Source of the DNA: a virus
Lineage: Duplodnaviria > Caudoviricetes
Length of the DNA: 54,249 nt
Strand: one strand, 5' to 3'
Virus record (IMG/VR): IMGVR_UViG_3300027741_000085
Span: 1 to 54,249 of that record
In this document: piece by piece, positions 1-37,285 of the stretch
How positions within the stretch are numbered: position 1 is the stretch's first letter
Layout of the letters: each line of letters starts with the position of its first letter
The notes under the pieces: generated by a model
The model's input: the letters and a program-made list of their open reading frames with translations, nothing else
The model's database searches: none
Told to the model about the DNA's origin: nothing
Position numbers and translations under genes: made by a program

Positions 1-229
1 CGTTATGCCTGTCTTTGGCAGCCACAGCCAAGCCGAGCATGTAGTGGTCTTCGAGGCCCTCACGGACTCCGAGTTTGGGGGCCTTTCGTAGTCCGTGACC
101 CACTTCCCACCCAATCCGCCAAGCCGATTCGATGAATGGATTGCCCTTTGGAAATTCGGGGTGCGCATCGGCATAACTAGCGGTTGCAGGCAACCCCTCT
201 ATGCTATCTGTCGGTGGATTCGTCTTCAT
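1..229 (-). CDS. Cassette-borne hypothetical protein, truncated at the window edge (MKTNPPTDSIEGLPATASYADAH...KDRHN)
   Basis: Manual translation. The ATG lies in the loop of attC A1 and the frame stays open to position 1, ending at GGCATAAC, the start of the next attC. Confidence 0.65.
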   Translation of the reverse strand, partial: MKTNPPTDSIEGLPATASYADAHPEFPKGNPFIESAWRIGWEVGHGLRKAPKLGVREGLEDHYMLGLAVAAKDRHN

Positions 230-262
230 GGCTTCGTGGTTGCCTGACCCTTATCGTTCTAA
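171..262 (-). mobile_element. attC-like site A1
   Basis: Minus strand AAC-gataa-gggtcaggcaacc...ggttgcctgCaacc-gcta-GTTATGC: an imperfect inverted repeat with an extra C. Its arms are nearly the same as those of site C4. Confidence 0.85.
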
Positions 263-571
263 TCATTCATCGGGCATATTGGGTAGCCACATCCAATGCG
301 TGATATGGCAGTCGATTGCTTCGTCGCTATGCACGTCGATCCAGTCTTTTCCGTCCCATGACGCGACGTAGTGCGTGCCTTGGTCGGTGGCGAGCACTGG
401 CTCAGGATCAGGCGGGAGCCACGAATCGGAGTTTACCCATGTCGGCACATTGCGCTTTTCCGCCATCGCTATGATTTGATCATGGACGCGGTCAGGCATC
501 TGACCAGAACCATGCGGTGCAGCGCAACGGGCAGGGTCTTCGGTGGTTTGAATATCGTTCGCTTCGTTCAT
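263..571 (-). CDS. Cassette gene, DUF551-like protein
   Basis: W-x-P...VL...W...ITHWMWLPNMP motif typical of phage DUF551 proteins. Confidence 0.75.
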   Translation of the reverse strand: MNEANDIQTTEDPARCAAPHGSGQMPDRVHDQIIAMAEKRNVPTWVNSDSWLPPDPEPVLATDQGTHYVASWDGKDWIDVHSDEAIDCHITHWMWLPNMPDE

Positions 572-879: not shown

Positions 880-959
880 ATCAGTCTTGATTTGAGTGTT
901 GAGCGGCTTCGTCGGAGCGCATCGCCGCCCCTTCCGTCGCCACAGTTTTGACGTTCTCT
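830..959 (-). mobile_element. attC-like site A3
   Basis: AAC-gtcaaa-actgtggcgacggaaggg...cccttccgttgccacCagt-gccgt-GTT on the minus strand. Confidence 0.85.
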
Positions 960-1246
960 CAACTGAACATAGCGGCATGTTTGATCGCTACGCATGATGA
1001 GCAAACATAGTATTCAGCCTCTTGTGTGCCGCCCTCATAGGCTCCAACTATTTGCACCCATATCAGTTCACCTTCTTTTGCGTCGGAACACACATCGCAG
1101 TCACGCGGATCTTTTGCCCAGAAGTCGCAGCACTCTAGCCCCATCTGGTCAGCCATCTGGTCAACCGTCAGAGAACACGGCACTGCATCCGACACGCAAA
1201 GCGGCGGTGGCGGTTCCGCGGGCGGAGTATGCGCGATCTCACTCAT
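959..1246 (-). CDS. Cassette gene, small Cys-rich (CxxC...CxxC) protein
   Basis: ORF track; CDVC and CSSC motifs; start lies inside attC A4. Confidence 0.7.
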   Translation of the reverse strand: MSEIAHTPPAEPPPPLCVSDAVPCSLTVDQMADQMGLECCDFWAKDPRDCDVCSDAKEGELIWVQIVGAYEGGTQEAEYYVCSSCVAIKHAAMFS

Positions 1247-3272: not shown

Positions 3273-3458
3273 ATGACGACGACACCACAATCCAAACAAA
3301 ACCTGCGCCGACTGGCCATAGCCAAGCCTGCCTGTCTCTACACCACGCCTTTCTGTGCGAGCTTTCCCACGCCGCCGCTGGTATTTGAAGAGGCGAGCGT
3401 TCAGCAAGAGGGTAAGAAGCTTTATGGACTCCGCACGCGTCGCACAATGTGGCGCTGA
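3273..3458 (+). CDS. Hypothetical protein
   Basis: ORF in operon context. Confidence 0.45.
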   Translation: MTTTPQSKQNLRRLAIAKPACLYTTPFCASFPTPPLVFEEASVQQEGKKLYGLRTRRTMWR

Positions 3459-3500
3459 TAATTAGTCAACCATCCATTCAACCACCCTCCACTCCACTCC

Positions 3501-3785: not shown

Positions 3786-4151
3786 ATGAGCCTAACCACT
3801 CTTAGCCCTCAGATGCTCAGCGCTATCGCTGGGCAACGGGAAAAACTCATTGTCATTCAGGTGCAGGCGGACCATGCGCCGCAGCCGGAATGGATTACGC
3901 CCCCTGCCCGCAGTGTGCCAGGGAAACCGCCGGTGCGCTGTCCTTACACGGGGCTATCCCGCAGCACGCTCTTAGATCTGATCATTGAGAGCATAGGAAC
4001 AGAACACGAGGTCGTTATCAAACATCGGCGCAAAGCCGGCGCTGATAAAGGCGTCATCCTCATTCACTACCCCAGCCTGAATGCCTACCTTCATTCCCTA
4101 CCTGCGTGGAAAGAAGCCAAGGTGCTGGAAACAGCAGAGCAGGATAATTAG
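3786..4151 (+). CDS. AlpA/excisionase-like DNA-binding protein
   Basis: CPYTGLSRSTLLDLI...GVILIHYPSLNAYL resembles wHTH directionality-factor proteins. Confidence 0.6.
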   Translation: MSLTTLSPQMLSAIAGQREKLIVIQVQADHAPQPEWITPPARSVPGKPPVRCPYTGLSRSTLLDLIIESIGTEHEVVIKHRRKAGADKGVILIHYPSLNAYLHSLPAWKEAKVLETAEQDN

Positions 4152-4188
4152 TCAACCATTAGTAAACATAACACTCCACTCCAAAACC

Positions 4189-5455: not shown

Positions 5456-5872
5456 ATGAAAAGCATCTCCTTTGCCCTCACTGTTCCGCAGTTTCAAGAT
5501 CGTAGTAAATCGGTGACTCGTCGCCTTGCCTGGGATTCGCTCGTCGAAGCCTGCGCCCGTGGTGCGAAACCTATCCTTCGCGCCTGCGAGAAGTGTCAGG
5601 GCTTGAAGAAGGGAGAGAAAGCCGTGGTGCTGGGTTACATCCGTGTCGTGAGCGCACGGAAAGAACAGCTCAGTAAGATGCTGGACAATCCCGACTATGG
5701 CCGCCGGGAAGTGATCAAGGAAGGATTCCCAGAAATGGCTCCCGAGGAGTTCGTGGATTTCTTCGTGAAATCCCATCCCGACAAAGCGAACCCGACCACG
5801 AAGAAGACTTTTGTGACGCGGATTCAGTTTGAATACCTGAGTGAAGCCGAAGCGGCGGCGTTAGAGAATTAG
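5456..5872 (+). CDS. ASCH/PUA-like domain protein
   Basis: ISFALT..QF...KSVTRRL.W...EGFP...FVDFF...VTRIQFEY is typical of phage ASCH proteins. Confidence 0.8.
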   Translation: MKSISFALTVPQFQDRSKSVTRRLAWDSLVEACARGAKPILRACEKCQGLKKGEKAVVLGYIRVVSARKEQLSKMLDNPDYGRREVIKEGFPEMAPEEFVDFFVKSHPDKANPTTKKTFVTRIQFEYLSEAEAAALEN

Positions 5873-5895
5873 TCAACCATCCACCCCTCCATCCC

Positions 5896-6376: not shown

Positions 6377-6477
6377 CCTACGGTTCCATTTGCAGCGGCA
6401 TCGAAGCCGCTACCACCGCTTGGCATTCGCTGGGCTGGAAGCCTGCATTCGTGGATTCACTACCCCTTACGAATTAG
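6373..6477 (+). pseudogene. 34-aa N-terminal remnant of a phage C5-cytosine DNA methyltransferase
   Basis: MTYGSICSGIEAATTAWHSLGWKPAF matches the motif-I region of phage Dcm proteins, then stops. Confidence 0.75.
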
Positions 6478-6534
6478 TCAACCATATCCCGCCCTCCTGA
6501 CTACTGGCTTCTGTCTTCTCACTCTTTCCTCCCC

Positions 6535-8390: not shown

Positions 8391-8606
8391 ATGAACAGTA
8401 AAACCGCTAAACTCATCCGTCGCTTTTCTCATGAAGGCGAACGAAGATTCGACCCAAACATTCGCGCTCATTATTTAGCAGCGAAACGAGGCTGGAACCG
8501 CACACCCCGCGCGCAACGGAAACTTATCCGCCAGGATATGAAAACCGTGGTGCGGCATCGGGTGCCATCGGCTACTTTAACCTCAGTTCCGGCGACAGAG
8601 AATTAG
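8391..8606 (+). CDS. Hypothetical basic protein
   Basis: ORF track. Confidence 0.6.
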   Translation: MNSKTAKLIRRFSHEGERRFDPNIRAHYLAAKRGWNRTPRAQRKLIRQDMKTVVRHRVPSATLTSVPATEN

Positions 8607-8632
8607 TCAACCATCCGCCCTTTCTTCTCCTC

Positions 8633-9195: not shown

Positions 9196-9489
9196 CAGCG
9201 CCGCTCCGAATCGGAAAGAAACTCCATAAGCAAAAAGAAAGCATCAACGTCACATCGGAAGTCGCAATCGGGTAAAGTCTCTGACAAAATTGCCCGCCAC
9301 TTTTTTCAACGCTTCGACAATGGAAGCGACACATGCAAGCGGCTCGCTGCTCGTGGCGGGCGATGGCCGGACAAAGAAACCGACCTCGGTGGAGTCTGTG
9401 AATCCGCCTTCGCATCAATAATTGAGGACGCACTCAATGCGCTGAACGACCAAACTCTGCCGACCGAAGGGGCGGCGAAAAAGCCATGA
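9196..9489 (+). pseudogene. Decayed cassette gene (no start codon; its attC has only the left arm)
   Basis: Frame ...KIARHFFQRFDNGSDTCKRLAARGGRWPDKETDLGGVCESAFASIIEDALNALNDQTLPTEGAAKKP* ends inside attC B1. AAC-gacaag-gtgagc at 9171 has no matching right arm. Confidence 0.5.
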
Positions 9490-9542
9490 AATCACGAAAG
9501 ACTACATCCGCCCCGAAGGTTGGCAGCAGTGCCTTGTTCGGC
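9441..9542 (+). mobile_element. attC-like site B1
   Basis: AAC-gaccaa-actctgccgacc...ggttggcagCagt-gcctt-GTTCGGC. Confidence 0.85.
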
Positions 9543-9806
9543 ACTTGGTCGCCGCCAGACACGGCCCCGAGAAACGGCACGCTCATCCTCGGAGACTTTG
9601 GATGGCCATGGCCGCTGCTTGCGGTCTGGGATGAGTATGATGAGCAATGGGTGACGGCCACCCTGCAAGCCTGCCCGATGGAGAATGGGAAGAAGAACTC
9701 ATACCTTGAAACTGACACGGAAAAGGGCAGCGCATTGAAGCGATGGACTCCGCTACCGCTGCTGCCGAACGTCTCGGATCAGGCGACGGCGAGGAGGAAG
9801 CAATGA
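9486..9806 (+). CDS. Cassette gene, DUF551-like protein
   Basis: WSPPDTAPRNGTLIL...W...WTPLP motif; starts in B1 and stops in B2. Confidence 0.75.
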   Translation: MKSRKTTSAPKVGSSALFGTWSPPDTAPRNGTLILGDFGWPWPLLAVWDEYDEQWVTATLQACPMENGKKNSYLETDTEKGSALKRWTPLPLLPNVSDQATARRKQ

Positions 9807-9855
9807 AGACACGACAGACTAAATCGAGCCGTTGCCTGCATCCGATTTGTTCGGT
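9764..9855 (+). mobile_element. attC-like site B2
   Basis: AAC-gtct-cggatcaggcgacggc...gccgttgcctgCatccg-attt-GTTCGGT. Confidence 0.85.
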
Positions 9856-10087
9856 CTTGTTGGCGTGTCCATTTTGCGGCGGCAAAGCAAAACGTGGCCG
9901 CAAGGCGATAGGCTTCGACACCATCGCTGATATCGTGCGTTGCGGTGCGGTGCGTTGCCCTGTGCATCCAGAAACAACACCGTGCGACCATCGCGGAATA
10001 CTGCGAGGCAAACGAGGCGCGGCGGAAGTGTGGAACCATAGACCGAACGTCGGCGGTGAGGCGACGGCGAGCGAGGCGCACCGCTGA
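9803..10087 (+). CDS. Cassette gene, Lar (restriction alleviation)-like zinc ribbon protein
   Basis: LLACPFCGG...C..C...AAEVWNHR pattern of the Lar family; the ATG overlaps the previous stop. Confidence 0.7.
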   Translation: MKTRQTKSSRCLHPICSVLLACPFCGGKAKRGRKAIGFDTIADIVRCGAVRCPVHPETTPCDHRGILRGKRGAAEVWNHRPNVGGEATASEAHR

Positions 10088-10134
10088 CACGACAAAATTT
10101 TTACGAGCCGTTGCCTCCACTGCTCTTGTTAGAC
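10042..10134 (+). mobile_element. attC-like site B3
   Basis: AAC-gtcggc-ggtgaggcgacggc...gccgttgcctcCact-gctctt-GTTAGAC. Confidence 0.85.
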
Positions 10135-10312
10135 CCAACGAACCACAAATATGCACTCCTGCCCTGAATGCGGACAAGCCTGTTATTGCAATGGCGACAT
10201 CGACGACATTGACGCAAACGCGATGGATGGACCACCGTTCTGCGAACACCCATGTATTGAGCCAGAGAAAGATGATCGCTGGCCTGATGACCCACCAGAA
10301 GTGAAGTCTAAC
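10046..10312 (+). repeat. 264-bp cassette, copy 1 (copy 2 at 35493-35759)
   Basis: Identical apart from two substitutions seen; identity starts and ends at the AAC boxes. Confidence 0.95.
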
Positions 10313-10321
10313 AGTGATTAG
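10151..10321 (+). CDS. Cassette gene, small acidic Cys-rich protein (MHSCPECGQACYC...)
   Basis: Manual translation; duplicate of 35598-35792. Confidence 0.7.
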   Translation: MHSCPECGQACYCNGDIDDIDANAMDGPPFCEHPCIEPEKDDRWPDDPPEVKSNSD

Positions 10322-10343
10322 CCTACCACCCGTTAGCATAATG
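10310..10343 (-). mobile_element. attI-like terminal site of array B
   Basis: 33 of 34 bp identical to 36066-36099; no hairpin; minus strand reads ...GGCTAATCACT-GTT. Confidence 0.6.
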
Positions 10344-10363
10344 GTTTTCCGTTGTAATATTGC

Positions 10364-10612
10364 ATGATGCATTCACCATCAGGAATAGAGGTTGCAGTTT
10401 GCCAAGATATTGCGGAGCGTCAGCAAAAGGGTATCGCTAAATATGGCGTGACGGTGGCGGATAATCCGCTGGAATTGCGGGACTGGCTCCAACACGCCTA
10501 CGAGGAGACTTTAGACAAAGCTGTTTATCTGAAACGAGCTATCGCGGAAATGGATAGGGCGAATCAAAACCCATCGCTAACACTTCCCCCACTGCTACCG
10601 AAGTCTGAATAG
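10364..10612 (+). CDS. Conserved phage protein, possibly MazG-like helical
   Basis: RQQKGIAKYG...WLQHAYEETLDKAVYL. Confidence 0.7.
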   Translation: MMHSPSGIEVAVCQDIAERQQKGIAKYGVTVADNPLELRDWLQHAYEETLDKAVYLKRAIAEMDRANQNPSLTLPPLLPKSE

Positions 10613-12396
10613 GAAGTGACGCCTGCGCCGATGGGTCCTTGATAAAGGGTAGCCGAGGGGAGACACTTGATACCGATGGCGCTACTCATAACCCAATCGT
10701 CATGCCAACCGGCTGCGGCTTCGAGTTTGCCGTCCACGTTCTGAAACACGCGGAGTTCGTGGCGGGTGCGCTCACAGGGGATGCTGATTTCTTCTTCACG
10801 CACGAGACGGGCGACGACATCTATCATGTCCCGCTTGTTGTTGGCAGTGGTAAGCCAGCCGGGGATGCGAATGATTTTCCCCTGCCCTACAGGTTTGGTT
10901 TCGTCCGCGCGGCGTCGGCACCAAAGAGGCACGCCACGGCGTCGAAGCATCTCAATGATGCCGTGCATGTTGTTGACCTCCGGGGCGCAGACGCAGTTCC
11001 CATACTCACGGGACATGAGGCTAATCCAGTCACAAAGCACATCCAAGTCCACCCGACAATCTGGCGGGATGGCTGCGACTTGTTTGACAGGCCAGTAAGA
11101 ACCTTCTGAATCCGTGTAAGCATCCCGCCACACACTGACGGCGTGGCAGTCAGGTTCACCCCGACTGCCTGCGGCTTGTTCTCCCGTCATGAAGTCGGCG
11201 CTGATGAGGTAGCGACAGCCGATGCGGGGCGGCTCCCACACGCGGAGCCAAGCATCCGAACGGGCGCAGGGCTGAAATACGGGCGGGCGCATCTCATTGA
11301 GCTGCACTTGTCCATCACGGTTTAGCTGCTCACTTTCCAGCGTGCCCCAAAGCGTTTGCTGGGTGATGGCCATGGTGTCCAGGGTATCAAGGCCATCGAG
11401 GTCAAAGCGATTGTTTCCCGTGCCCCTGAAACAAGTGATGTCATCTGAGGGATATTCGACATCGAAACGCCGTGGATCTCCGCCTGATCGAGGATCTGAA
11501 ATCACGTCACGCCGCCACTGAAGATGTGCGGCGCTGATCTTCCAGTGATTCCCATATTTGGCCATCAAGCGCGATTCCCACTCGTCCAAGGAGTTCATGA
11601 GGGCTTCGCCTTCTGTAGCGGTCATCTTGCGCAGCGGTTTGGAGTCTTCAAAACCAAACCATGGATAGAAGACTTTCACGTAGCCATTGCCACGCTTGCC
11701 CGCTTTGAACTCGTCGAACGTGATCGCACCGTTGTAGGTTTCGTAGTAGACGCCTTGCTGTCCGTTCGCGGTGCTCTCAATGATCACGCAGGTATTTGGC
11801 AGGTCCGGCACACAGTTTAGGAGCGACTGGAATACAGCCTCGCCCGTGGCCTTGCCGCTGGGTCGGTAGTAGGCGGCTTCAGAAGCGAGAACAAACTGGA
11901 ACGTCCCGCCCATCCCGGCGCGTGGATCGTTCGCGGTTTCTTCGTAGAGCTTGCTGCCGTGGCTGAAGCCCATGCCGTCTTTGTCCGGGGTATTCCCCCA
12001 ATTCCATCGGTCGTTATCTGTGTAGCGATGGAAGATTTCCATCAGTTTACCCGTGGTATTTTTATCGTCACCAAGAATGCCGCCTGTGCAACAGAAGTTC
12101 CGCAAGTGCGTGTAAAGCAGGGCAAGCGAGATGGTGGAAGATCCTTTCTGCCGTGGCTTCAAGATGACGATGCGGCAGGGCTGCCCCGTCTCAATGCAGT
12201 ATTTATAGATGTCTACGACCTGACGCTGGAATTCGTTGAGGCGCAGTTCAGGGAACTTCACCAGTCGCCCGCCCTTGTCCTGAATGGCCCCCTCCATCTG
12301 AAGCCAAACGGCAGGATTCCCGCGCACCTCCATCTGGGCCTCAAGGCGAGCGATGGCGTCCGCTGCCTTGGTCTTGGGGGAAGCGATGGCGACCAT
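10564..12396 (-). CDS. terL: Terminase large subunit
   Basis: ILKPRQKGSST Walker A, LASEAAYY Walker B, IESTANG motif and C-terminal nuclease HDDWVMS. Confidence 0.9.
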   Translation of the reverse strand: MVAIASPKTKAADAIARLEAQMEVRGNPAVWLQMEGAIQDKGGRLVKFPELRLNEFQRQVVDIYKYCIETGQPCRIVILKPRQKGSSTISLALLYTHLRNFCCTGGILGDDKNTTGKLMEIFHRYTDNDRWNWGNTPDKDGMGFSHGSKLYEETANDPRAGMGGTFQFVLASEAAYYRPSGKATGEAVFQSLLNCVPDLPNTCVIIESTANGQQGVYYETYNGAITFDEFKAGKRGNGYVKVFYPWFGFEDSKPLRKMTATEGEALMNSLDEWESRLMAKYGNHWKISAAHLQWRRDVISDPRSGGDPRRFDVEYPSDDITCFRGTGNNRFDLDGLDTLDTMAITQQTLWGTLESEQLNRDGQVQLNEMRPPVFQPCARSDAWLRVWEPPRIGCRYLISADFMTGEQAAGSRGEPDCHAVSVWRDAYTDSEGSYWPVKQVAAIPPDCRVDLDVLCDWISLMSREYGNCVCAPEVNNMHGIIEMLRRRGVPLWCRRRADETKPVGQGKIIRIPGWLTTANNKRDMIDVVARLVREEEISIPCERTRHELRVFQNVDGKLEAAAGWHDDWVMSSAIGIKCLPSATLYQGPIGAGVTSYSDFGSSGGSVSDGF

Positions 12397-24343: not shown

Positions 24344-24826
24344 ATGACGACTCCCACTATCACCTACGTCCTTGAGTGTCCTGATGCCCGTGTGAACGAT
24401 CCCGTCGAAGGGAAAAGCGGCAAGGTGTATGGGGTCTATTTGAGGGATGCGGTAACCAGCGTTCCTACGCTGCGGATGACAGCGGCACAGTTTGAGGAAG
24501 CGAGGAAAGATTTGTTTGGTTATCAGCGCAGGCATAACCACATCATCCCACGGGTCGAGATTGAAGGAAGTGAGCCTGAGAAGAAGGCTCCTAAAGAACC
24601 TGATCAGAAAAAGGAAAAGGAAGAACCAAAGCGTTCACACAAGAAAAAAACTTTACCGGAAGTTCCAAAATCACAGGATGGAGAAGCGGCATCTCACCAG
24701 TCTCATAATCTGGAGAACGAGGGTTCAAATCCCTCTCCTGTAACCCCTCCTCCTGCTGCCGCGCCGGCGCCAGCATCTTCTGCACCCTTAAAAACAACGC
24801 CTGACGGGAAGGTGAAGAAATACTGA
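24344..24826 (+). CDS. Hypothetical protein with a low-complexity C-terminus
   Basis: ATG at 24344; Lys/Glu/Pro-rich tail. Confidence 0.6.
   Translation: MTTPTITYVLECPDARVNDPVEGKSGKVYGVYLRDAVTSVPTLRMTAAQFEEARKDLFGYQRRHNHIIPRVEIEGSEPEKKAPKEPDQKKEKEEPKRSHKKKTLPEVPKSQDGEAASHQSHNLENEGSNPSPVTPPPAAAPAPASSAPLKTTPDGKVKKY
24672..24743 (+). tRNA. tRNA-Met(CAT), initiator-like cloverleaf, inside a CDS
   Basis: Acceptor CACAGGA/TCCTGTA with C1:A72 mismatch; D stem GAGA/TCTC; anticodon loop CTCATAA; T arm GAGGG-TTCAAAT-CCCTC; followed by CCC rather than CCA. Confidence 0.75.
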
Positions 24827-26387: not shown

Positions 26388-27158
26388 ATGGCTGAGAAAC
26401 CACCCGGATTTCGCATGGAGACGACATCACCGCATAGCCGCGATGATCTTCTACATGTCCCTTTCCAAATGGTGGCGATGTCGCCTGATACCCGCCCAAA
26501 TTTGGGTGAGAAGCTAAAAGATATTCGATTTGATGCCAATGCGCGCCCAAGCATTTCTAAATTCTCGGATTGGGTGTTAGTGGAAATTGACAGCGGATCG
26601 CTGGTGTTCGGTCAAAACAATCTTCCTACGGCGGCTTTAGCGCTGGAACCAAGTGATACGTTACATGATCGAGATCATTGGAGCTGGCCGACGGTGATAC
26701 GCGGTCAACCGATTTGGCAACATATTATTGGCACAGGTGGAAACTACTTGGAGACAAGAGTCATTATTGATGAAGTGCCAGAGCAAACGTTACCTACGTT
26801 TTTCCTAACGGAAATCTGGTGGACCACTGAACCTTGGCCGCTGGAATTACTTAAAACAAAGCAACCTCTCACTTCTCCCGTGGTGTGGGGCTATCCCGGA
26901 GCGCGAGGAAGTAGGCAAGCACTCCATGAAACTATCGACACGCCCCCACTAACGATCACTTCTATACGCGGACAAACGGCACCGGTTCATATTCCTTCCC
27001 GTCGTTTTCCTGGCACAGATTTCAAGCATTGGACCCGTTACGTGGTGTCTGATAAACAGCCCAAGATTCGAGGCCGTTATCGCCGTGAACGGCGCACGGC
27101 TATTCCTCCTTACGATTCACGTAAATATCCTAACCCACCTTTTGATTTGAGTTCATGA
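26388..27158 (+). CDS. Hypothetical tail-region protein
   Basis: ORF track. Confidence 0.6.
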   Translation: MAEKPPGFRMETTSPHSRDDLLHVPFQMVAMSPDTRPNLGEKLKDIRFDANARPSISKFSDWVLVEIDSGSLVFGQNNLPTAALALEPSDTLHDRDHWSWPTVIRGQPIWQHIIGTGGNYLETRVIIDEVPEQTLPTFFLTEIWWTTEPWPLELLKTKQPLTSPVVWGYPGARGSRQALHETIDTPPLTITSIRGQTAPVHIPSRRFPGTDFKHWTRYVVSDKQPKIRGRYRRERRTAIPPYDSRKYPNPPFDLSS

Positions 27159-27925
27159 GTGACGGCTATTCGAGTGTAGAAGCCTGGCGACAAGCGGAGC
27201 AAGCGCCTTTTTTCATGGCCCCGAATCAGCGCCAAAAAGGCTTTGGTTCGCGGGTGTTTTTGCAAGCACAGACGCCGCAGGATGAATACCCCTTGGATGG
27301 GTGGGGTAACCCAGGCATTCCGGGTAAAGATGGCGTGTCAAGCAGTGGTGTGGATGGACTACCCGGAAAAGACGGAGTAGACGGAGCAGACGGGACGCCT
27401 TCCACGGTAGCAGGTCCAATGGGTCCACCGGGTTTAGCAGGCGCAAACGGAGCCGATGGCAACCCTTCTACGGTAGCTGGCCCCCCTGGAGATGCTGGTT
27501 CTCCAGGAACTCCTGGGAATCCATCAACAGTGCCGGGACCGCCCGGACCGCCCGGACCACCGGGAGCTCCTGGAAGTGATGGCGGACCCCCAGGCCCCCC
27601 AGGTTCACCTGGAGGCCCAGGAAGTGACGGAAGTCCTGGCGGCGCTGGTAGCCCAGGAAGTCCTGGCGGCGCTGGTAGCCCGGGAAGTCCCGGAGCGCCC
27701 GGAATAGACGGCACGGATGGAAGAGACGGCACGGATGGAAGAGACGGTGTAGGTGTGCCTTCCGGTGGCCATACCGGCCAAGTTTTACGCAAACTTGATG
27801 AATCTCCTTACACATCCGTTTGGGATGAATTGGGTAAAACTATCAACGTGGCAGTGCTCGCCAACGATGGGGTTACAACCATTATTCTACATTTTACCAA
27901 CGGCCTTTTAACCTCAACCTCATAA
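27155..27925 (+). CDS. Collagen-like fibre protein
   Basis: Long interrupted Gly-X-Y repeats, including GPP runs. Confidence 0.9.
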   Translation: MSDGYSSVEAWRQAEQAPFFMAPNQRQKGFGSRVFLQAQTPQDEYPLDGWGNPGIPGKDGVSSSGVDGLPGKDGVDGADGTPSTVAGPMGPPGLAGANGADGNPSTVAGPPGDAGSPGTPGNPSTVPGPPGPPGPPGAPGSDGGPPGPPGSPGGPGSDGSPGGAGSPGSPGGAGSPGSPGAPGIDGTDGRDGTDGRDGVGVPSGGHTGQVLRKLDESPYTSVWDELGKTINVAVLANDGVTTIILHFTNGLLTSTS

Positions 27926-28535: not shown

Positions 28536-28670
28536 ATGAAAACCCTCGATCATCTCGACTGGCAACAGATCATCAGCATAGAGCCTGACGGGGAAGACGA
28601 ATGCGTGTGTATCGAAGTCACTCACCCTAGCAAGTGCTACATCACGGATGACGGGATCGTGACACACAAC
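28536..28670 (+). other. Orphan intein C-terminal fragment (IntC, 45 aa)
   Basis: Blocks F and G ending in HN, followed by Thr+1, directly after the start Met. Confidence 0.8.
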
Positions 28671-31600
28671 ACGACGGTGAACACCCCATCTTTGCAAATG
28701 GGGGCTGCACAGGAGAATCCAAATGCTGCATTGCAGGATAAAGCTATTCGTGGTATAGATGAGGCACTCTATGGAGACTCCCGCAAAGAAAATCAGCAAC
28801 GGAGGCGTGGTCACACCGGAAACGATGCCCGATCTTTTAGCCGCGCCGCGCTCCAAGACGAACGCCGAAATAAGGGCGCAGGCGGAGCGCGCGAGGAGCT
28901 GGCGCGCGACACAGGCGCAACGCGAAGAGAAGAAGCCGCTCGTCTCGTAGATTACGCACGGGATAACGGCTTCCTCATTGAGAAGATGCCGGAGCAATGG
29001 AAGCCCTACGCCGAGGGTGATGTGGGCGGACAAGAGCACCATGTGTGGATTCCAGAACAAGGAGCGCGGGTTATCAAGCTTACAACGCTGAGCAAACGCG
29101 GTGCCGACATTTTTGGTATGAACCCTGTGCCCTATCAAGGGAAGTGGGACTTGGACACGAAGGGAGCGACCGCTTACCGCTATCTTCAGCGTCTCGAAGA
29201 CGGAAACCAGACTTTCGGGGATGATCACATTGTGCATGGTGTCTGGAATGATCGTGGAGATGTCCACCTTCTTACGAGTCAGCGGGCCTATGATGGGGAA
29301 CTGCCTAGCAATCTTCCCGAGGGACTCGCAGCAGCCGAAGAAGCGGCGGAGAGCGACCGACGCACGCAAGATGTTGCCGAGGCGTTTGCTAAACAAGGCT
29401 TTGTCGCTCTAGATAACCGCACCTATTACCGTCCTTCCGACAATACAGCCGTCTTTGATGCCCACTTAGCAAACGTCATGTGGGTTACTGGAAAAAGCGG
29501 AGTGCGTCGCCTAGTTCCCTTTGATGTCACGACCATGCATCCCGTGGGCAAGCTCAAGGAGAATTTAGCTCAAGCAGCGCAGGCTGTTGCCGAACCCCAA
29601 CGTCTCTACATGGCCGCCGCACAAGCTGCGGATGAACTCGCCCGTATCAATCGCGAAGCTGGCGCCGCCCGCGTGATCAAGGATGAACTTGAGGAAAAGG
29701 GCCAGCCGGCGAAGCAAATGACCGGAGTGAAGGAGTCGGCAGCCGCCGCTCTGCGTGGCATCTTTGCTGGGAAGTTTGATAAGATGGAAGCCGCCGCCCG
29801 TGGTCTTGGTGACTTGGTGCGCGGGAATGACATTGAACAGCACTTCTCGGAAGCCGCGCTCAATGACTACATGGATAAGGTGCGCCAGTCGGTAAAGGAA
29901 AGCTTCGGCTCGCCTTCCTACTGGCATAACCGACAGAACCGGAAACGTCTCCAGCGCTTCAGTGATACCTTGCTGCCTGTCGCGGCGCGCTTGAATGCCA
30001 CGGGGATTGATCCAACGGGCTTCACGTTCTCCGACTTCGACATGCGCGTGGGCACGATCTTTGAAAGTGACCTCAAGAAAATGAACGCTAAGCCGGGTGA
30101 CATGATCCCGTGGAAGGGCGCGAGTGGCATGATGGAAATGCTCAAGGTAGGGCCGCTCATCATGGACCAAGGCGTGAACGCCCGTAGTTCCAAGAATGGG
30201 CGTTATACCCTGCTCCGCCACATGGCTGCGGATACTCAACAGATCATCTATGACCACTTCAAACAAGAATTCCCTGAAGGCGCGGCGTGGTTAGATCAAT
30301 GGATTGATCCCCTGCTACGGGATGCCACGCAGACGGGGCCGGGTAATGTGCAAGTGCCTGTGTTCAATCGCCACGCGCTGCTCAAGAGTTTTAATGACTG
30401 GTCGCCAGAACTGAAAGCGCTCTTTGGTAGTGAACCCCTGCCAGGCATCACCGGAATGGAAGGCTACACCCCGGACGTGATGGCGCAGAAGGGGCTGATT
30501 AACAGCATCGGTGCTGCCTTGAACGGCAATAGTTACCTGAATCGATTCATGTCCAGCGCTCGCAAATTCAAAGCGGGTGACTTACGCGAAGAGGGCAACG
30601 TCAAGAACCTTTTCGACGGCTTTACGCAGCGGGCCATGGAATCGCATCGTGAGAAGATTCGCCTCAAGACACGGCGCGACATCATTCAGAAAGCCGCCCG
30701 GCCAGCGAACAAGGTTCAACCGGAAGACTTGCGCTCTGGCTTGTTCATTCCCCTCGATGACACGTTCAAGAAGCTTTATGAGGCGCATGTGATCGCCTCT
30801 GGCCTTGATCGTGCGAAGTTCCCCGTGCTCACGCAATCTCTCAATCCTGACCAGAAGAGCGCCTTGCAAAAGCTCTTTGCTGATATGTATCAGCTCTATG
30901 GGAACGGCATGGTGATTCATCGCGATATTCACCGCCAGCTTGTGCTGGGTGCCGCCATGACCCAGACAGAGAATAGCCTCACTAAAGCGCTGTCATGGAT
31001 CATTGGACGACGTAACCGTAACGTTTTAGTAGAGTTGGGCACGTATGCCAATAATTGGAGAGGTAACTTTGTGCTGCAACCCGTGGAACTTATGAACCGG
31101 GTGAACCTTGCGATTGTGAACGGATTGACGGCTCCGTTCAGTAGCAAGGCCAAGGATGAAGGTGAACTAGCCGCTCGCCAAGTAGCTGAGCTCTTCAAGG
31201 GCTTCTTTGCTGATCGCCGTATCTTCGACCTCTGGACACTGAATAACGGTTTAGGGGCGGGGATTGGGAAGATTCGTCCATTTGTGCCGCAAGAAGTCTT
31301 TGGCGACGGTAGCAATCTTAGATATGACGAGGATTTTCGAGACAAAAGCGTGCTCGGTCATTTGAAAAACCTCGACGTAGGCGCGGCGTTCCTGCAAGGC
31401 ATCCGCTACGGGAACATCGATACACATCCAAAGATGAGTAACACGTATCGGCTTCTCCGGGCAGAAGCGGCGCATGTGGCCGCCCGTCAGAAGATTCCCA
31501 ACGCCAAGCGTGAAGCCTTCATCAATGATTGGATGCTGAACGCTCATAAGGATAATCCCCTTGCCTTCCTGCGAGCGTTCAAGGCTAGTCAATCCCGGTT

Positions 31601-33047
31601 CATGGACTATGAGAACGTCCCTTCGTGGATGGACCCTACGCAGTCGGCTTTGCCCCTGAATGCTAGTGACAACGCTCGTCATTGGGAAAAACTGCTAAAA
31701 AGCGCCACGTTCCCGTTCATCCGCTGGAACTACAACATGATGCGTCAAGTCTATCATCAGAGCTTTGGCGCGCTCATCAATGCCACGCAAGGCGCGCAAG
31801 AGGGCGACTGGAGCAAGGTGCGTTCTGAAGTGGCAAACCTCATGACGACGGCGGCTCTAACGGGTGTGGCTTCCTATCTTATTGGTGGTGGCGGTGGGGA
31901 TGATGACAAGGAGCTTTCTCTAGGCACAAATCAAGATGCTGAAGGTAAGTATCTGCCTAAACAACTGCGCAGTGGTAGCCGATTGAATTGGGCCTCTATT
32001 ATGCGTAGGCTTACGGGTAAGCCAGCTACAGATGACTATAGCGTTGAAGGTTTAGATCATAGTGCGAATGATTTATGGTATCGCTACAAACAAGACCCAT
32101 GGTTGCCTCAAGCCATCATCCTCGGTTTGCTTGCTCGAGGCCGTGCCGATGAAGCTTACAAAGCGGCTGGCGATCTGGGCACCGATTACTTTTTAAGTTT
32201 TGGTGTGATTGGGAATACTATTCCAGGTCTGCGCGCTGTTCTAAATCCTTATACGGCGGATCAGAACTATAGTTATGCAGCAACAGGCACCGCTATTGAT
32301 TTGGCCATCTCGCCGCTTGTGCCAACTCGGTTGATTCAACACATCAGTAAGATTATCGACCCTGTGACCCGACAGGAAGCACCGCGTGTGTTGCCTCGCA
32401 GTGAGGGCAAGACCAAGAAAGGCTGGGAGGATTATCAGCCTGGACCACTCGAAGCATTGAAGATGCGTATTCCAGGCATGAGCAAAGACTTGCCTGCTGC
32501 TGGCACTCTTACACAGGGGGAAGCGGGGAACTTTGATCCTGAAGCATGGTTACGCAATAAGACCAGCACGCTACGCACCCAGCTTAATAAAGGACTGATC
32601 ACGAAAGAGCAGTTCCGCCAAGCCGCCGGCGATGCCGTCAACCAAGCCAAGGAACTTGCCGCCAACAAGCTGAGCCCTCCCCAAGTAGAGAAGCTCTATG
32701 CCGACATGGGCATTAATCAGACTCCCGATGATAAAAAGCGGGTGAGCGGCGTTCCCATGATTCCTGAACTGCGCACGCTTCAGGATCTCGGCGTAGGCAA
32801 GGAGAGCGTGAGAACCTACGTCAGCAAAGATAGCAAAGGCCGTGATGTAACCAAAATTACCGCGCCAAGCCCTGATACAATAACTGTCGCCGATCCGCGC
32901 TTAGAAATCCTTAAAGCACTTACAGGAATTAACGTATCTTTGATCCCCACAGGGCGCGTGAAAGCTGCCGTTCAAAAAGGCGATTTCTACAAGACCCCGT
33001 GGAAACCTAAGCAGGCGTTGACGGGTAAGGATTGGTTCAAGAAGTAA
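28536..33047 (+). CDS. Giant polyvalent virion protein: N-terminal intein C-fragment, PolyVal-type kinase and large C-terminal region
   Basis: CVCIEV...YITDDGIVTHN/T at residues 1-46; GGQEH.VW...RVIK...DAHLANV...PFD kinase-like motifs; C-terminal region paralogous to the 4450-aa protein. Confidence 0.8.
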   Translation: MKTLDHLDWQQIISIEPDGEDECVCIEVTHPSKCYITDDGIVTHNTTVNTPSLQMGAAQENPNAALQDKAIRGIDEALYGDSRKENQQRRRGHTGNDARSFSRAALQDERRNKGAGGAREELARDTGATRREEAARLVDYARDNGFLIEKMPEQWKPYAEGDVGGQEHHVWIPEQGARVIKLTTLSKRGADIFGMNPVPYQGKWDLDTKGATAYRYLQRLEDGNQTFGDDHIVHGVWNDRGDVHLLTSQRAYDGELPSNLPEGLAAAEEAAESDRRTQDVAEAFAKQGFVALDNRTYYRPSDNTAVFDAHLANVMWVTGKSGVRRLVPFDVTTMHPVGKLKENLAQAAQAVAEPQRLYMAAAQAADELARINREAGAARVIKDELEEKGQPAKQMTGVKESAAAALRGIFAGKFDKMEAAARGLGDLVRGNDIEQHFSEAALNDYMDKVRQSVKESFGSPSYWHNRQNRKRLQRFSDTLLPVAARLNATGIDPTGFTFSDFDMRVGTIFESDLKKMNAKPGDMIPWKGASGMMEMLKVGPLIMDQGVNARSSKNGRYTLLRHMAADTQQIIYDHFKQEFPEGAAWLDQWIDPLLRDATQTGPGNVQVPVFNRHALLKSFNDWSPELKALFGSEPLPGITGMEGYTPDVMAQKGLINSIGAALNGNSYLNRFMSSARKFKAGDLREEGNVKNLFDGFTQRAMESHREKIRLKTRRDIIQKAARPANKVQPEDLRSGLFIPLDDTFKKLYEAHVIASGLDRAKFPVLTQSLNPDQKSALQKLFADMYQLYGNGMVIHRDIHRQLVLGAAMTQTENSLTKALSWIIGRRNRNVLVELGTYANNWRGNFVLQPVELMNRVNLAIVNGLTAPFSSKAKDEGELAARQVAELFKGFFADRRIFDLWTLNNGLGAGIGKIRPFVPQEVFGDGSNLRYDEDFRDKSVLGHLKNLDVGAAFLQGIRYGNIDTHPKMSNTYRLLRAEAAHVAARQKIPNAKREAFINDWMLNAHKDNPLAFLRAFKASQSRFMDYENVPSWMDPTQSALPLNASDNARHWEKLLKSATFPFIRWNYNMMRQVYHQSFGALINATQGAQEGDWSKVRSEVANLMTTAALTGVASYLIGGGGGDDDKELSLGTNQDAEGKYLPKQLRSGSRLNWASIMRRLTGKPATDDYSVEGLDHSANDLWYRYKQDPWLPQAIILGLLARGRADEAYKAAGDLGTDYFLSFGVIGNTIPGLRAVLNPYTADQNYSYAATGTAIDLAISPLVPTRLIQHISKIIDPVTRQEAPRVLPRSEGKTKKGWEDYQPGPLEALKMRIPGMSKDLPAAGTLTQGEAGNFDPEAWLRNKTSTLRTQLNKGLITKEQFRQAAGDAVNQAKELAANKLSPPQVEKLYADMGINQTPDDKKRVSGVPMIPELRTLQDLGVGKESVRTYVSKDSKGRDVTKITAPSPDTITVADPRLEILKALTGINVSLIPTGRVKAAVQKGDFYKTPWKPKQALTGKDWFKK

Positions 33048-34559: not shown

Positions 34560-34945
34560 TTAGGAACGTTCGCATCAGCGATGGCGGAAGTCCCTGCTCT
34601 GTTGACCAGCAGCAGGCTTGTTCGGCTTGTGTGCTGATTCACGATCTGCATTTGCGACTGAGCGCCTTGGAGGCGGCCCATCACCGTCTTGTGTGGAAGG
34701 TGGCAGAAGCGACCAAATGGGAACCGCAAGGCTGCGATGACCAGCCAGTGGGAATAGCTGAATCGTTCTGCCAAAACTGTCGGACGTGCCACTATCCGCT
34801 GTCCGGCTGCCCTGGTGATGGCGGCCCTACGGGACCAGAACCAAATGGAGCAGATGGGCCTGTCGGAATGCCTGGCCCGCGTGGACCAAATGCAGACGGA
34901 GCGCCTAGAGAAACGGAAGAAGAGCACAGGCAACGCCTGAGCTGA
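34556..34945 (+). CDS. Cassette-like gene with Cys motifs and a short Gly-X-Y segment
   Basis: ATGA coupling; spans degenerate attC C1; stops inside attC C2. Confidence 0.55.
   Translation: MIRNVRISDGGSPCSVDQQQACSACVLIHDLHLRLSALEAAHHRLVWKVAEATKWEPQGCDDQPVGIAESFCQNCRTCHYPLSGCPGDGGPTGPEPNGADGPVGMPGPRGPNADGAPRETEEEHRQRLS
34561..34626 (+). mobile_element. Degenerate or chimeric attC-like site C1
   Basis: GAAC-gttcgc-atcagc left arm; short hairpin cctgctctg/cagCagcagg followed by GTTCGGC; the outer arms do not match. Confidence 0.45.
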
Positions 34946-34992
34946 GGCACACAGCCTTGCGGGCTGTGTTGGCCTCCGGCGCTGTGTTCCCC
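34928..34992 (+). mobile_element. attC-like site C2
   Basis: AAC-gcctga-gctgaggcacacagcc...ggctgtgttggcctcCggc-gctgt-GTTCCCC. Confidence 0.85.
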
Positions 34993-35033
34993 TGCGTTCC
35001 GACTGACCTACAAAAGATTTCTAAAAATATCGC

Positions 35034-35304: not shown

Positions 35305-35534
35305 TTTTTGCTCAACAACTCCGAGCCGCCGCTGGCGACCTGACCGCACGGCAGGTCGCCTTTGCGGTGTCTCCGCTCCTGAGCGTCCGCACGGTAGAGG
35401 ACTGGCTCGCGGCCAGACGGACGCCACCGGACTGGACGCACGCATGGATTCTGAAAAACGTCGGAAGTCCAAAGAATCCCCGCAAGCGGGGGAACGTCGG
35501 CGGTGAGGCGACGGCGAGCGAGGCGCACCGCTGA
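35301..35534 (+). CDS. Cassette gene, XRE-like HTH protein
   Basis: LT.RQ.A....LLSVRTVEDW...RRTPP. Confidence 0.75.
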   Translation: MIFAQQLRAAAGDLTARQVAFAVSPLLSVRTVEDWLAARRTPPDWTHAWILKNVGSPKNPRKRGNVGGEATASEAHR

Positions 35535-35581
35535 CACGACAAAATTTTTACGAGCCGTTGCCTCCACTGCTCTTGTTAGAC
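35489..35581 (+). mobile_element. attC-like site C3 (same as B3)
   Basis: Identical to 10046-10134 from the AAC onward. Confidence 0.85.
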
Positions 35582-35597
35582 CCAACGAACCACAAAT

Positions 35598-35792
35598 ATG
35601 CACTCCTGCCCTGAATGCGGACAAGCCTGTTATTGCAATGGCGACATCGACGACATTGACGCAAACGCGATGGATGGACCACCGTTCTGCGAACACCCAT
35701 GTATTGAGCCAGAGGAAGATGATCGCTGTCCTGATGACCCACCAGAAGTGAAGTCTAACGGTCAGGGTCAGGCAACCTCCGAAGCGAAATGA
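35598..35792 (+). CDS. Cassette gene, small acidic Cys-rich protein (copy 2)
   Basis: Duplicate of 10151-10321 with a different C-terminal tail. Confidence 0.7.
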   Translation: MHSCPECGQACYCNGDIDDIDANAMDGPPFCEHPCIEPEEDDRCPDDPPEVKSNGQGQATSEAK

Positions 35793-35855
35793 AGACGAAG
35801 CTACCAGACAAGGCGCACCAAAGCGACGGGGGTTGCCTGCAACCTGTGGTTATGC
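35753..35855 (+). mobile_element. attC-like site C4
   Basis: GTCTAAC-ggtca-gggtcaggcaacc...ggttgcctgCaacc-tgtg-GTTATGC. Confidence 0.85.
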
Positions 35856-36067
35856 GACGGCTCTTCCTAGAGAAGGTGGCCGCAAAGGAAGCTGCTGCTG
35901 CTGCTGCCCGCACCGCCGCCATCCGCCGCAAGCAACTCGGCCCCATGCAGACAGAGGAGGGGATGCGCCATGACATCCAAGGCATCTTTGCTGATGGCGT
36001 CCACGCCCGAGGCGTCGGCTCTGCGGCAACCAAAATTCGCATCAAGGAACATGGGCAAGACGCATAA
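35789..36067 (+). CDS. Cassette gene, hypothetical protein
   Basis: Start lies in the C4 loop; the TAA overlaps the terminal AAC. Confidence 0.65.
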   Translation: MKTKLPDKAHQSDGGCLQPVVMRRLFLEKVAAKEAAAAAARTAAIRRKQLGPMQTEEGMRHDIQGIFADGVHARGVGSAATKIRIKEHGQDA

Positions 36068-36099
36068 CACTGATTAGCCTACCACCCGTTAGCATAATG
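36066..36099 (-). mobile_element. attI-like terminal site of array C, just upstream of int
   Basis: AACACTGATTAGCCTACCACCCGTTAGCATAATG; second copy at 10310. Confidence 0.6.
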
Positions 36100-36127: not shown

Positions 36128-37285
36128 ATGTTTACGCTGATTCCACGCGGGAAGAAAGGGTTGTTCTCGGCTGTTTGGTGGGAGAAGCAGCCGGATGGGA
36201 CGCTGAAACAGCAGTGGAAGGCTACGGGGACGAGTAATCGGAAGCTGGCTAAGGAGATGGCGGAGCTATGGGTGGAGGCTTCGCAGGAAAAGCGTATTTC
36301 GGAACGATTTAAACAACGCACTTTGGAACTGACTCGACGGCTTTCGGGGCGGTCGGGATCGTTGACGGTTCGGGATTGGTTCAAGAAATGGATTGAGGAA
36401 CGCACGCCCGAGGTGAGGCCTTCAACGCTGGCGTATTTCAAGGGGAAGACACAAGCGTTCATGGATTACCTGGAGTCGGTGAAGATGGCGGATGCGGATC
36501 TCGGAGCCATTGATGCGCGGCATATCCAGGGGTTCCGAGATGCGGACCTGAAGCGAGTGACGGCGGCCACGGTAAATCATTCCCTGAAGTGCTTACGGAT
36601 GGTGTTCAAGGCGGCGTGCGAGCGGGGCTTGATCATGGAAGATCCGACAAAGACGGTGAAGACGTTTAAGAAAAGCACGCAGGAACAAGAGGGCGATGAG
36701 ACGCGCCGCGCTTTCGAGGTGGCAGAACTTCAGGCCGTGCTCAAGGTGTGTAATGAGGAATGGCAAAGCCTCGTGATGTTTGGGGTTTACACGGGTCAGC
36801 GCCTCCATGACATCGCGAAGATGAAATGGAAGCAAGTGGATGTGGCTACGGGAATGATTCATTTTAAATCCAGTAAGACGCGCCGCATTGTGCGGTGTCC
36901 GCTCCCTGCGCCCTTGCATGACTGGCTCCTCACTCAGACGATGCCGGATGATGAGCGCGCGCCCGTGCATCCGCTGGCGTTCAAGGCTGGTTCAAGCACG
37001 TTGTCTGGGCAGTTCGGTGATATTTTAGCGGCGGCTGGACTGCGGAAAAAGATTCCCCGGACAGCCTCAAAAGATCGAGTGCTTACGGGCGACCGACGAA
37101 CCAAGAACGAACTCAGCTTCCATTCGTTGAGACATACCTATGTCACTTGGTTGAAGATGGCTGGCGCATCATCTGCCGTGGCCATGGACGCCGTGGGGCA
37201 TGATTCCGCTGGAATTAATGAGCATTACACGCATGTGGATGATGACACGAAAAAGCGCTTTGCGGACTTGCTGCCAAGATTGTGA
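36128..37285 (+). CDS. int: Phage tyrosine integrase
   Basis: TGQR, K, HSLRH and GH...HY catalytic residues; SAM-like core-binding domain; no IntI-specific insertion. Confidence 0.92.
   Translation: MFTLIPRGKKGLFSAVWWEKQPDGTLKQQWKATGTSNRKLAKEMAELWVEASQEKRISERFKQRTLELTRRLSGRSGSLTVRDWFKKWIEERTPEVRPSTLAYFKGKTQAFMDYLESVKMADADLGAIDARHIQGFRDADLKRVTAATVNHSLKCLRMVFKAACERGLIMEDPTKTVKTFKKSTQEQEGDETRRAFEVAELQAVLKVCNEEWQSLVMFGVYTGQRLHDIAKMKWKQVDVATGMIHFKSSKTRRIVRCPLPAPLHDWLLTQTMPDDERAPVHPLAFKAGSSTLSGQFGDILAAAGLRKKIPRTASKDRVLTGDRRTKNELSFHSLRHTYVTWLKMAGASSAVAMDAVGHDSAGINEHYTHVDDDTKKRFADLLPRL

Follow-up and report, generated by a model that had tools for sequence, protein, structure and literature searches.

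An attC-type cassette present twice in a freshwater phage contig, and the case for integron-like cassette movement in phages

Integrons are seen as platforms with which bacteria capture genes. Within an integron array, each cassette closes with a box whose counterpart is the far box of its own attC site; the circular form of the cassette brings the two together. The sections of Nivina et al. (2016, PMC5027507) drawn on here describe attC sites in which crossover on the bottom strand falls between A and C of the R-box 5'-AAC-3', extrahelical bases lie opposite the AAC arm, the central spacer is unpaired, the terminal structure is variable and the bottom strand is richer in G:T pairs. For phages, the sections of Qi et al. 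(2023, PMC9892861) used here report 21 phages with attC clusters or integrons among 10,705 NCBI phage genomes, mostly two-site clusters that were read as captured bacterial components, with few complete integrons. T4-type phages also have mobile regulatory cassettes, the Promoter-early Stem-Loops (PeSL), which, by the titles and abstracts of the two reports (Arbiol et al. 2010, PMC2839356; Comeau et al. 2014, PMC4122927), contain promoter-terminator motifs and are thought to move by homologous exchange. Here we describe a 264-bp unit that occurs in two arrays of hairpin sites in IMG/VR virus record IMGVR_UViG_3300027741_000085 (Duplodnaviria; Caudoviricetes). The whole record, 54,249 bp of linear short-read metagenome assembly from freshwater, was analysed and is referred to as the window.

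The unit is best read as an attC cassette, composed of a small open reading frame (ORF) and its own attC, that was copied between two arrays of one phage by site-specific recombination; judging from sequence evidence, we give this reading a probability of roughly 85%.

The duplicated cassette and its ends

Positions 10045-10312 and 35492-35759 (268 nt) align without gaps and differ by two substitutions only, A/G at 10268 and G/T at 10282, both of which are non-synonymous. Direct reading, alignment and a repeat finder agree on this, and self-BLAST of the contig pairs the copies at E 1.5e-136, bearing out an earlier note on this DNA that had reported two near-identical copies with two differences. 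The pair is the sole long near-identical repeat that the repeat finder detects in the contig; the other long repeat families are paralogous coding sequence, 72-79% identical. The features of the two copies are as follows.

10048..10311, plus strand: cassette copy A, 264 bp, in array 1, adjoining the terminal site; identity with copy B over 10045-10312
10046..10130, plus strand: attC-type hairpin of copy A; AAC 10046-10048, GTT 10128-10130; 81.7 bits
10151..10321, plus strand: cysteine-rich (Cys-rich) ORF of copy A, 56 aa; last three codons and stop (...N-SD-stop) from the terminal site
35495..35758, plus strand: cassette copy B, 264 bp, in array 2, second from the terminal site; identity with copy A over 35492-35759
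35493..35577, plus strand: attC-type hairpin of copy B; 78.7 bits
35598..35792, plus strand: Cys-rich ORF of copy B, 64 aa; tail (...N-GQGQATSEAK-stop) from the next attC

The ends of the match are sharp. On the left it opens with G-AAC, before which one copy reads ...ATAGACC and the second ...AAGCGGG; on the right it closes with ...GTCTAAC, after which one copy goes on as AGTGATT... and the second as GGTCAGG.... All four flanks are unrelated, and with the crossover placed inside AAC the unit is 10048-10311 in one array and 35495-35758 in the other, 264 bp in each. Ordinary homologous exchange is excluded because the homology at the ends is limited to (G)AAC. The self-alignment thus returns the AAC-to-AAC ends, the unlike neighbours on both sides and the length that the earlier note had given, and homology running well past the AAC boxes, which the note had named as the finding that would contradict it, was not seen. 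Its account, in which identity runs from the (G)AAC of one attC to the AAC of the next site, needs one qualification: at the right end of copy A that next site is attI-like and terminal, and no further attC. Its description of the movement as recent can be taken only in a relative sense, given two substitutions that are both non-synonymous.

The Cys-rich proteins encoded by the two copies have 53 residues in common, with the changes K40E and W44C (B relative to A), and differ at the C-terminus (...N-SD and ...N-GQGQATSEAK) because the tail comes from the neighbouring site. The protein matched no family in Pfam, NCBIfam, PHROGs or the ESM Atlas; relatives at 50-70% identity were found in 4 viral and 23 metagenome loci.

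Hairpin sites and the cassette-end rule

The copies belong to two of three arrays of hairpin sites in the window, the remaining members of which are listed here.

9445..9538, plus strand: attC-type hairpin, 62.3 bits; far box GTTCGGCA (9536) complements TGCCGAAC ending at 9770
9447-9769, plus strand: cassette with ORF 9486-9806, begun by hairpin 9445..9538
9768..9851, plus strand: attC-type hairpin, 98.3 bits; far box GTTCGGTCT (9849) complements AGACCGAAC ending at 10048
9770..10047, plus strand: Lar-like cassette, 278 bp, with ORF 9803-10087 (restriction alleviation; PF14354 29 bits, phrog_599)
34922..34998, plus strand: degenerate attC-type hairpin, 16.2 bits, E 0.07; far box GTTCCCC (~34986) complements GGGGAAC ending at 35495
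34957-35304 and 35301-35534, plus strand: ORFs of the cassette begun by hairpin 34922..34998
35757..35851, plus strand: attC-type hairpin, 30 bits; far box GTTATGC (35849) complements GCATAAC at 36062-36068
35759-36067, plus strand: cassette with ORF 35789-36067, begun by hairpin 35757..35851
165..268, minus strand: attC-type hairpin of array 3, 44.7 bits; AAC 258-256, GTT 177-175; far box GTTATGCC has its partner GGCATAAC at 8-1, where the contig ends
830..965, minus strand: attC-type hairpin of array 3, 122 nt, 29.2 bits; far box GTTCTGTGA complements TCACAGAAC at ~634

Array 1 has three sites within 700 nt, array 2 two strong sites and a weak one, and array 3 two strong and two weak sites, the latter at 505-640 and 1164-1285 on the minus strand (E 1.4 and 2.2). 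With at least two attC sites close together and no IntI, the window arrays correspond to clusters of attC sites lacking an integron integrase (CALIN).

Each element consists of AAC, 11 nt, G[G/C]C[A/G]AC, a loop of 43-82 nt, GT[T/C]G[G/C]C, 11-12 nt and GTT. The typical window hairpin is imperfect and 83-95 nt long, one minus-strand element of array 3 reaching 122 nt; copies are located at 9445, 9768, 10046, 35493 and 35757 (plus strand) and at 955 and 258 (minus strand). A degenerate hairpin pattern gave 5 matches in the window vs 0 in 100 shuffles, and a covariance model recovered 7 strong and 4 weak copies (34922-34998, 34577-34632 and, on the minus strand, 505-640 and 1164-1285). An Rfam scan of the window returned one tRNA only and placed no curated RNA family over the hairpin. 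For the alignment, 39 of 52 unique elements were used, elements of ambiguous orientation, identical copies and those over 100 nt being dropped. AAC and GTT are invariant in all 39, and the consensus fold has three outer pairs, a bubble of 3-5 nt between AAC/GTT and the inner stem, a 12-pair stem and one bulged base on the 3' arm, constant at alignment column 98 and opposite the AAC. Compensatory changes occur in 6 of the 15 consensus pairs, and single-stranded DNA folding of four window elements reproduces the structure.

The two strands of the hairpin are not equivalent. A G.T pair is present on the AAC-first strand in 38 of the 39 aligned elements and would be an A.C mismatch on the opposite strand; the covariance model scores 90-109 bits on the sense strand vs 20-28 antisense; and in 4/4 window elements the gene-sense strand folds more stably as single-stranded DNA, by 2.6-4.3 kcal/mol. 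The R box of the family is GTTC[G/T][G/C]C, with C at position 4 in 37/41 viral and 143/169 bacterial copies, and R boxes of this GTTC... kind occur also in arrays adjoining true IntI. The boxes of the duplicated cassette itself, GTTAGAC and GTCTAAC, are an exact fit to the canonical RYYYAAC/GTTRRRY. A second type of hairpin, about 60 nt long with the loop ...GAGCCTAAGCGAG..., was also seen after the partner AAC, immediately past the last element that the model finds, in L021/L014, L025, L026, L037 and L051; because these hairpins follow the partner AAC, several viral arrays are longer than the model of the 85-nt type shows.

If the hairpins are attC sites, the far box of one site should match the box that ends its cassette. 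In the duplicated cassette the far box GTTAGAC (10128-10134; 35575) complements the GTCTAAC that ends the same cassette (10312; 35759), and the scored window pairs have 5, 6, 4 and 4 nt of complementarity beyond GTT/AAC. Across the arrays of 24 locus strands, in a set from which the duplicates L013, L019, L033, L038, L042, L045, L048 and L050 and all single-element loci were left out, 51 of the 67 neighbouring pairs that could be scored show far box (i) and near box (i+1) to be complementary for 4 nt or more past GTT/AAC, a box not having been found in 5 of the 72 pairs. The same complementarity joins the two boxes of one site in 5/89 cases and random pairings in 5.9%; within bacterial arrays the rule holds for 39 of 55 pairs. 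The 16 failing pairs are mostly more than 580 nt apart, and an intermediate site may have been missed in them. Because the complementarity runs from far box to next near box, the crossover is placed at the 5' AAC of the gene-sense strand, which thus corresponds to the integron bottom strand, and this position matches the start and the end of the unit exactly.

These observations suggest how the copy arose. An IntI-type enzyme would have acted at the conserved AAC of the folded single-stranded attC, and in the circular form of the cassette ...GTCTAA would join C-GTCGGCGG, restoring a perfect 7-bp R box with GTTAGAC. Copy A would then have been inserted at the attI-like terminal site of array 1, where it now holds the first position. 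The enzyme may have come from the roughly 31% of the phage genome that is unassembled (CheckV completeness of the contig is 69%), from the host or from a co-infecting phage. The fold, its covariation, the strand asymmetry, the AAC/GTT boxes, the cassette-end rule and the linkage to IntI described below all support the earlier note's view of precise cassette movement through attC.

Terminal sites, IntI and the phage cassette format

Both plus-strand arrays end, after the last AAC, in the same 34 nt, within which a 29-mer is exact in both; the shared motif is AAC followed by A[G/C]TGATTAGCC. The two sites and the gene that follows the second are listed below.

10310..10343, plus strand: attI-like terminal site of array 1; AAC followed by AGTGATTAGCC...CATAATG
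36066..36099, plus strand: attI-like terminal site closing array 2; start of the 385-aa integrase gene 28 nt further on; run X3 contig
36128..37285, plus strand: tyrosine recombinase, 385 aa, of the generic phage-integrase type; PF00589 66.7 bits, TIGR02249 31 bits (cutoff 265)

The exact 29-mer had no match in IMG/VR. Its core, AACA[G/C]TGATTA, was counted 11 times across the viral loci (7 of these distinct) vs 0.11 expected, and 0 times in 1.9 Mb of bacterial loci. At four of the five other distinct core sites, an ORF of 330-344 aa begins 50-60 nt further on and scores 344-352 bits over the full length of TIGR02249; the phage loci in which attC-type sites are linked to IntI in this way include L020, L029, L034 and L035. 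A profile of four phage IntIs found 101 relatives in IMG/VR, of which 80 were kept and 31 loci were at least 60% identical (18 distinct sequences). The core motif stands 35-74 nt before intI in 12 of the 19 non-duplicate close viral IntI loci with upstream sequence, and all 19 hairpins upstream of viral intI are on the intI strand, none being opposite, with 17 of the 19 read through in frame. One IntI-bearing record (39.1 kb, terminal repeats, 100% complete) encodes a terminase, a helicase and an endolysin, and is a phage on the strength of these genes. With its core motif directly before true intI in other phages, the terminal site is attI-like by sequence, and the phage genome has at least three putative cassette arrays, each plus-strand array ending in such a site.

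The recombinase might also be the generic tyrosine integrase of the phage (36128-37285), acting on the terminal site and the hairpins in place of an IntI, given that its gene is co-oriented with array 2 and takes the same position after the terminal site as intI does in the IntI-bearing phages. We consider this unlikely, since the motif that precedes this gene precedes true IntI in four other phage loci, and in window array 1 and in the second array of L029, which ends in the motif with no intI just as in the window, it leads into unrelated genes. The protein reaches 31 bits on the IntI model, far from the 344-352 bits of the phage IntIs, and had no relative in IMG/VR (by pattern search) or among the 50 viral loci compared. 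Moreover, among five array-bearing viral records searched, three lack a tyrosine recombinase, and a complete one yields nothing beyond a 21-bit match.

In a quick tree the viral IntIs form clades apart from 32 bacterial IntIs (3 label changes vs 26.4 when shuffled), including an all-viral clade of 23 rows with support 95; the split between viral and bacterial clades is provisional, as the method was a quick one and a single family supplied all the bacterial rows.

The same hairpin pattern is widespread. It was found in 45 viral stretches of IMG/VR, with arrays of up to 9 co-oriented elements (L021, L025), and in at least 120 stretches of the genome collection, where all but 5 of the 80 matches listed are metagenome-assembled genomes of Verrucomicrobiota. 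One bacterial locus (L112) holds 14 elements in 8 kb at 99-109 bits, and 150 of the 169 bacterial copies are 85 nt long. IntI above the TIGR02249 cutoff was detected in 3 of the 5 hairpin-bearing genomes searched and in 47 of 121 sampled genomes of that bacterial family. Genome G008 has three elements, scoring 24.7, 36.8 and 105 bits, upstream of the 5' end of its intI (342 bits) and on the intI strand, the geometry predicted if the sense strand of the element is the bottom strand. From their sequence, the hairpins are the attC family of Verrucomicrobial integrons, and the shared family makes Verrucomicrobiota the likely host phylum of the phage. Phage and bacterial loci have 185 short BLAST matches in common at the hairpins and no cassette body of at least 200 nt. 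At both intI loci of G008 (L185, minus strand, ~4060; L189) AAC followed by AGTGTT(T)ATT stands ~600-640 nt before the matched part of intI; this sequence is related to the phage terminal motif, yet distinct from it.

The direction of the phage genes was unexpected. Of 43 elements in viral loci, 36 have at least 50 open codons upstream in the frame that takes AAC as a codon, vs 4 and 9 for the other frames, and this frame ends 10-17 codons past the AAC; in bacterial loci it is open in 38 of 160, vs 42 and 28, and the long ORFs there are on the opposite strand. Upstream of intI, 12 of 14 close viral loci have their longer open frames on the same strand as intI, and 19 of 25 bacterial loci have them on the opposite one; this crude proxy compares the longest open frames in 1.2 kb, and distant viral IntI loci are mixed (19/30). 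In the window, the Pfam (PF14354, 29 bits) and PHROG (phrog_599) matches of the Lar-like gene are both on the plus strand, and codon scores separate the strands modestly, plus-strand ORFs averaging ~+0.05 and minus-strand ORFs -0.24, with core genes at 0.28. The tails encoded across junctions resemble N-V-S-D-Q-A-T-A-S-x-stop, and a start codon lies at the stop of the tail in 32 of 41 junctions. Phage cassette genes thus appear to be encoded by the bottom strand of attC and to stay in frame across the crossover, with AAC read as Asn, opposite to those of bacterial arrays; their proteins would gain a tail of 10-17 codons from the neighbouring site, at whose stop the next gene would usually start.

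The gene of array 3 at 959-1246 (minus strand) recurs at 4431-4688 in L008, an unrelated viral contig (68% aa / 75% nt), and at 43% aa in L025. Its presence in an array of L008 shows that phages have cassettes in common.

Taken together, these features would fit phage-adapted integrons, with a viral-only IntI clade, an attI core of their own (AAC followed by A[G/C]TGATTA), several attI-terminated arrays, bottom-strand in-frame cassettes with junction tails and coupled translation, and an attC family shared with the host but a separate cassette pool. Such platforms would shuffle small accessory genes, for example the Lar-like anti-restriction gene, within and between phages probably infecting Verrucomicrobiota. 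We hold this broader proposal to be slightly better than an even bet.

Independent samples, remaining alternatives and comparison with known systems

Twelve sequencing runs have words in common with 9700-10700, and four of these (X1-X4), from four studies, were compared with the window over 9300-10700. In X1 the repeat forms a contig of exactly 268 nt (10045-10312) at a depth of 30.9, about double that of its flanks (19, 16.7, 18.9 and 17.3). One X1 contig covers 9300-10074 and ends 30 nt into the repeat, the left flank of copy B shows up as a free end at 10045, and each of the two left and two right contexts of the cassette is represented. Contigs 9764-10267 of X2 and 9914-10201 of X3 bridge the left junction of copy A, and in X3 the copy-B variant runs on into the array-2 hairpin; across the right junction of copy A there is just one short contig, of 57 nt (30 + 27 nt). 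In X4 a 717-nt contig matches 9764-10051 only, with 1 mismatch, and is unrelated on both sides, its right side being another hairpin. The Lar-like cassette therefore sits in another context in X4 with the same kind of ends. In X1 the 34-nt terminal site is a separate contig at a depth of 39.5, with a third, A/C-rich continuation beyond the two known from the window; this third continuation may be the end of array 3, and its composition hints that it could lead to intI in the unassembled part.

These data bear on the possibility that the unit occurs once per genome and that its duplication is an artefact of assembly or a mixture of strains. The window is a short-read metagenome assembly in which a 268-nt repeat exceeds the assembly words, contigs of this family tend to break at hairpin sites, and the independent contigs cannot phase the flanks. 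The equal depth of the X1 flanks with a unit at about twice that depth is nevertheless what two copies in one genome would give, two fixed differences set the copies apart, data from two other studies span the left junction of copy A, and in X3 the copy-B variant reaches its array-2 neighbour, so we regard an artefact as quite unlikely. Mobility of the cassette would follow in any case, as the unit is found in two contexts with the same AAC ends. The window and the contigs of L007 and L027 end on the AAC partnering the far box of the last hairpin, or 1 nt beyond it, and hairpin sites appear to be assembly break points, presumably from population-variable cassette content.

Homologous recombination or gene conversion between arrays through the hairpin repeats, with no site-specific enzyme and in the manner of T4-type shuffling, could draw on hairpins that are 65-75% alike in the window (repeat finder; the third self-BLAST match is at 75%) and abundant in the samples (right-arm depth 122 in X2), but is very improbable, since the whole left hairpin lies inside the copied unit with homology to the other context stopping at (G)AAC, the right end of copy A has a terminal site and no hairpin, and such exchange would yield neither the far-box/next-near-box complementarity in 51/67 pairs nor the same three-base ends of a second cassette in X4. 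Nor do the arrays have the content of PeSL cassettes: a scan for the sigma-70-type consensus only found 0 sigma-70-like promoters in them (shuffles 1.2, 0.7), and neither array has a terminator-like site on the coding, plus strand.

Several observations weigh against reading the unit as an attC cassette moved by an integron-type enzyme. Profile and six-frame searches of the contig found no IntI gene or remnant in the window, where the generic phage integrase is the sole recombinase, and neither a circular form of the cassette nor an empty site was seen. The hairpin family has an R box that departs from the canonical GTTRRRY at position 4, and coding on the bottom strand through the crossover is a non-classical cassette layout. 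The earlier note had proposed looking for the same unit in other phages or bacterial integrons; by BLAST, the cassette body was absent from every other fetched locus, matching just its own second copy. Loci of the Cys-rich relatives, searched without the duplicate records L195, L210 and L215, are not flanked by the hairpin, 1 weak match being found in 24 searched. Finally, contigs built from 31-letter words cannot phase the left flank with the right, and the phasing of the copies is that of the original short-read assembly.

The remainder of the contig is that of a phage, with PHROGs matches for large terminase, portal, major head protein, replication initiator and helicase loader. Relatives of its terminase (L004-L006, 47-48% identity) had no hairpin elements by pattern or covariance model, and its terminase and portal were unmatched in five IntI-bearing viral records, which belong to a different phage group, so that this comparison says nothing on absence. 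Searched against a cultured-phage database, 9400-10700 gave one 185-nt match, to an Acidovorax phage, under ORF 10364-10612 and outside the arrays. A motif of 15-18 nt, GAATTAGTCAACCAT, and its complement TTGTCAACTAATT recur at gene boundaries contig-wide, on the plus strand at 3456-3473, 4142-4159, 5863-5880, 6468-6485 and 8597-8614 and as inverted copies near 13676, 21489, 24284, 37286, 38241 and 39347; it looks like a phage promoter or operator and unrelated to the attC sites. ORFs of 1503 aa (28536-33047) and 4450 aa (39382-52734) have a diverged C-terminal ~3.3 kb in common (29711-33037 vs 49299-52715; 72-79% nt identity), and the tested part of both had no PHROG match. A 26-nt stretch encoding ...DWFK... 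occurs at 33029-33054, 36373-36398 and 37376-37401, the first falling at the end of the 1503-aa ORF, the second within the integrase gene and the third at the start of ORF 37320-38219. In addition, 27-nt tandem-like repeats at 27560-27688 encode a collagen-like Gly-X-Y stretch inside ORF 27155-27925, and a tRNA-Met (CAT) gene lies at 24671-24746 within the structural module.

The phage genome appears to bear the footprint of cassette movement between its own arrays, and one site family ties together dozens of viral contigs, phage-borne IntI genes and host chromosomal integrons. The reversed in-frame format, if confirmed, would be a compact way to swap and co-express small phage genes, with a likely role in counter-defence, and would give a testable case of viruses re-using a single-strand recombination system. 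The hairpin sites would explain contig breaks in assemblies and offer a marker for host prediction. Full-text literature searches turned up no paper on Verrucomicrobial phage integrons, reversed in-frame cassettes or a phage attI motif.

The arrays resemble bacterial chromosomal integrons, such as the Vibrio superintegron with its Vibrio cholerae repeat (VCR) sites, in the R/L-box hairpin with AAC/GTT and bottom-strand crossover, in the unpaired spacer, opposite-arm bulge, variable loop and G:T strand bias, and in the uniformity of sites within a lineage, the cassette-end rule and an array that ends at attI by intI. They differ in that the phage genes occupy the bottom strand, stay in frame across the crossover and run towards attI/intI and not away from it, in the GTTC[G/T][G/C]C R box, and in that one phage genome has several arrays and attI-like sites, with no IntI in the window. 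The attC sites that Nivina et al. (2016, PMC5027507) treat in the sections used here have two or three bulged bases, whereas these hairpins have only one. PeSL cassettes, as far as the titles and abstracts go (Arbiol et al. 2010, PMC2839356; Comeau et al. 2014, PMC4122927), are alike in having structured repeats that flank small accessory genes and in modular swapping, and unlike in the fixed-triplet ends and IntI-linked attC seen here. The CALINs reported by Qi et al. (2023, PMC9892861) are the nearest phage counterpart, with attC clusters that have no neighbouring IntI and cassettes of anti-restriction type. Beyond the sections of that paper considered here, we add a coherent site family on at least 45 viral contigs with up to 9 sites, 18 viral IntI sequences, a phage attI motif, reversed polarity and an inter-array copy. 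It is the cassette format and the platform that are a new integron variant, attC clusters in phages having been published already.

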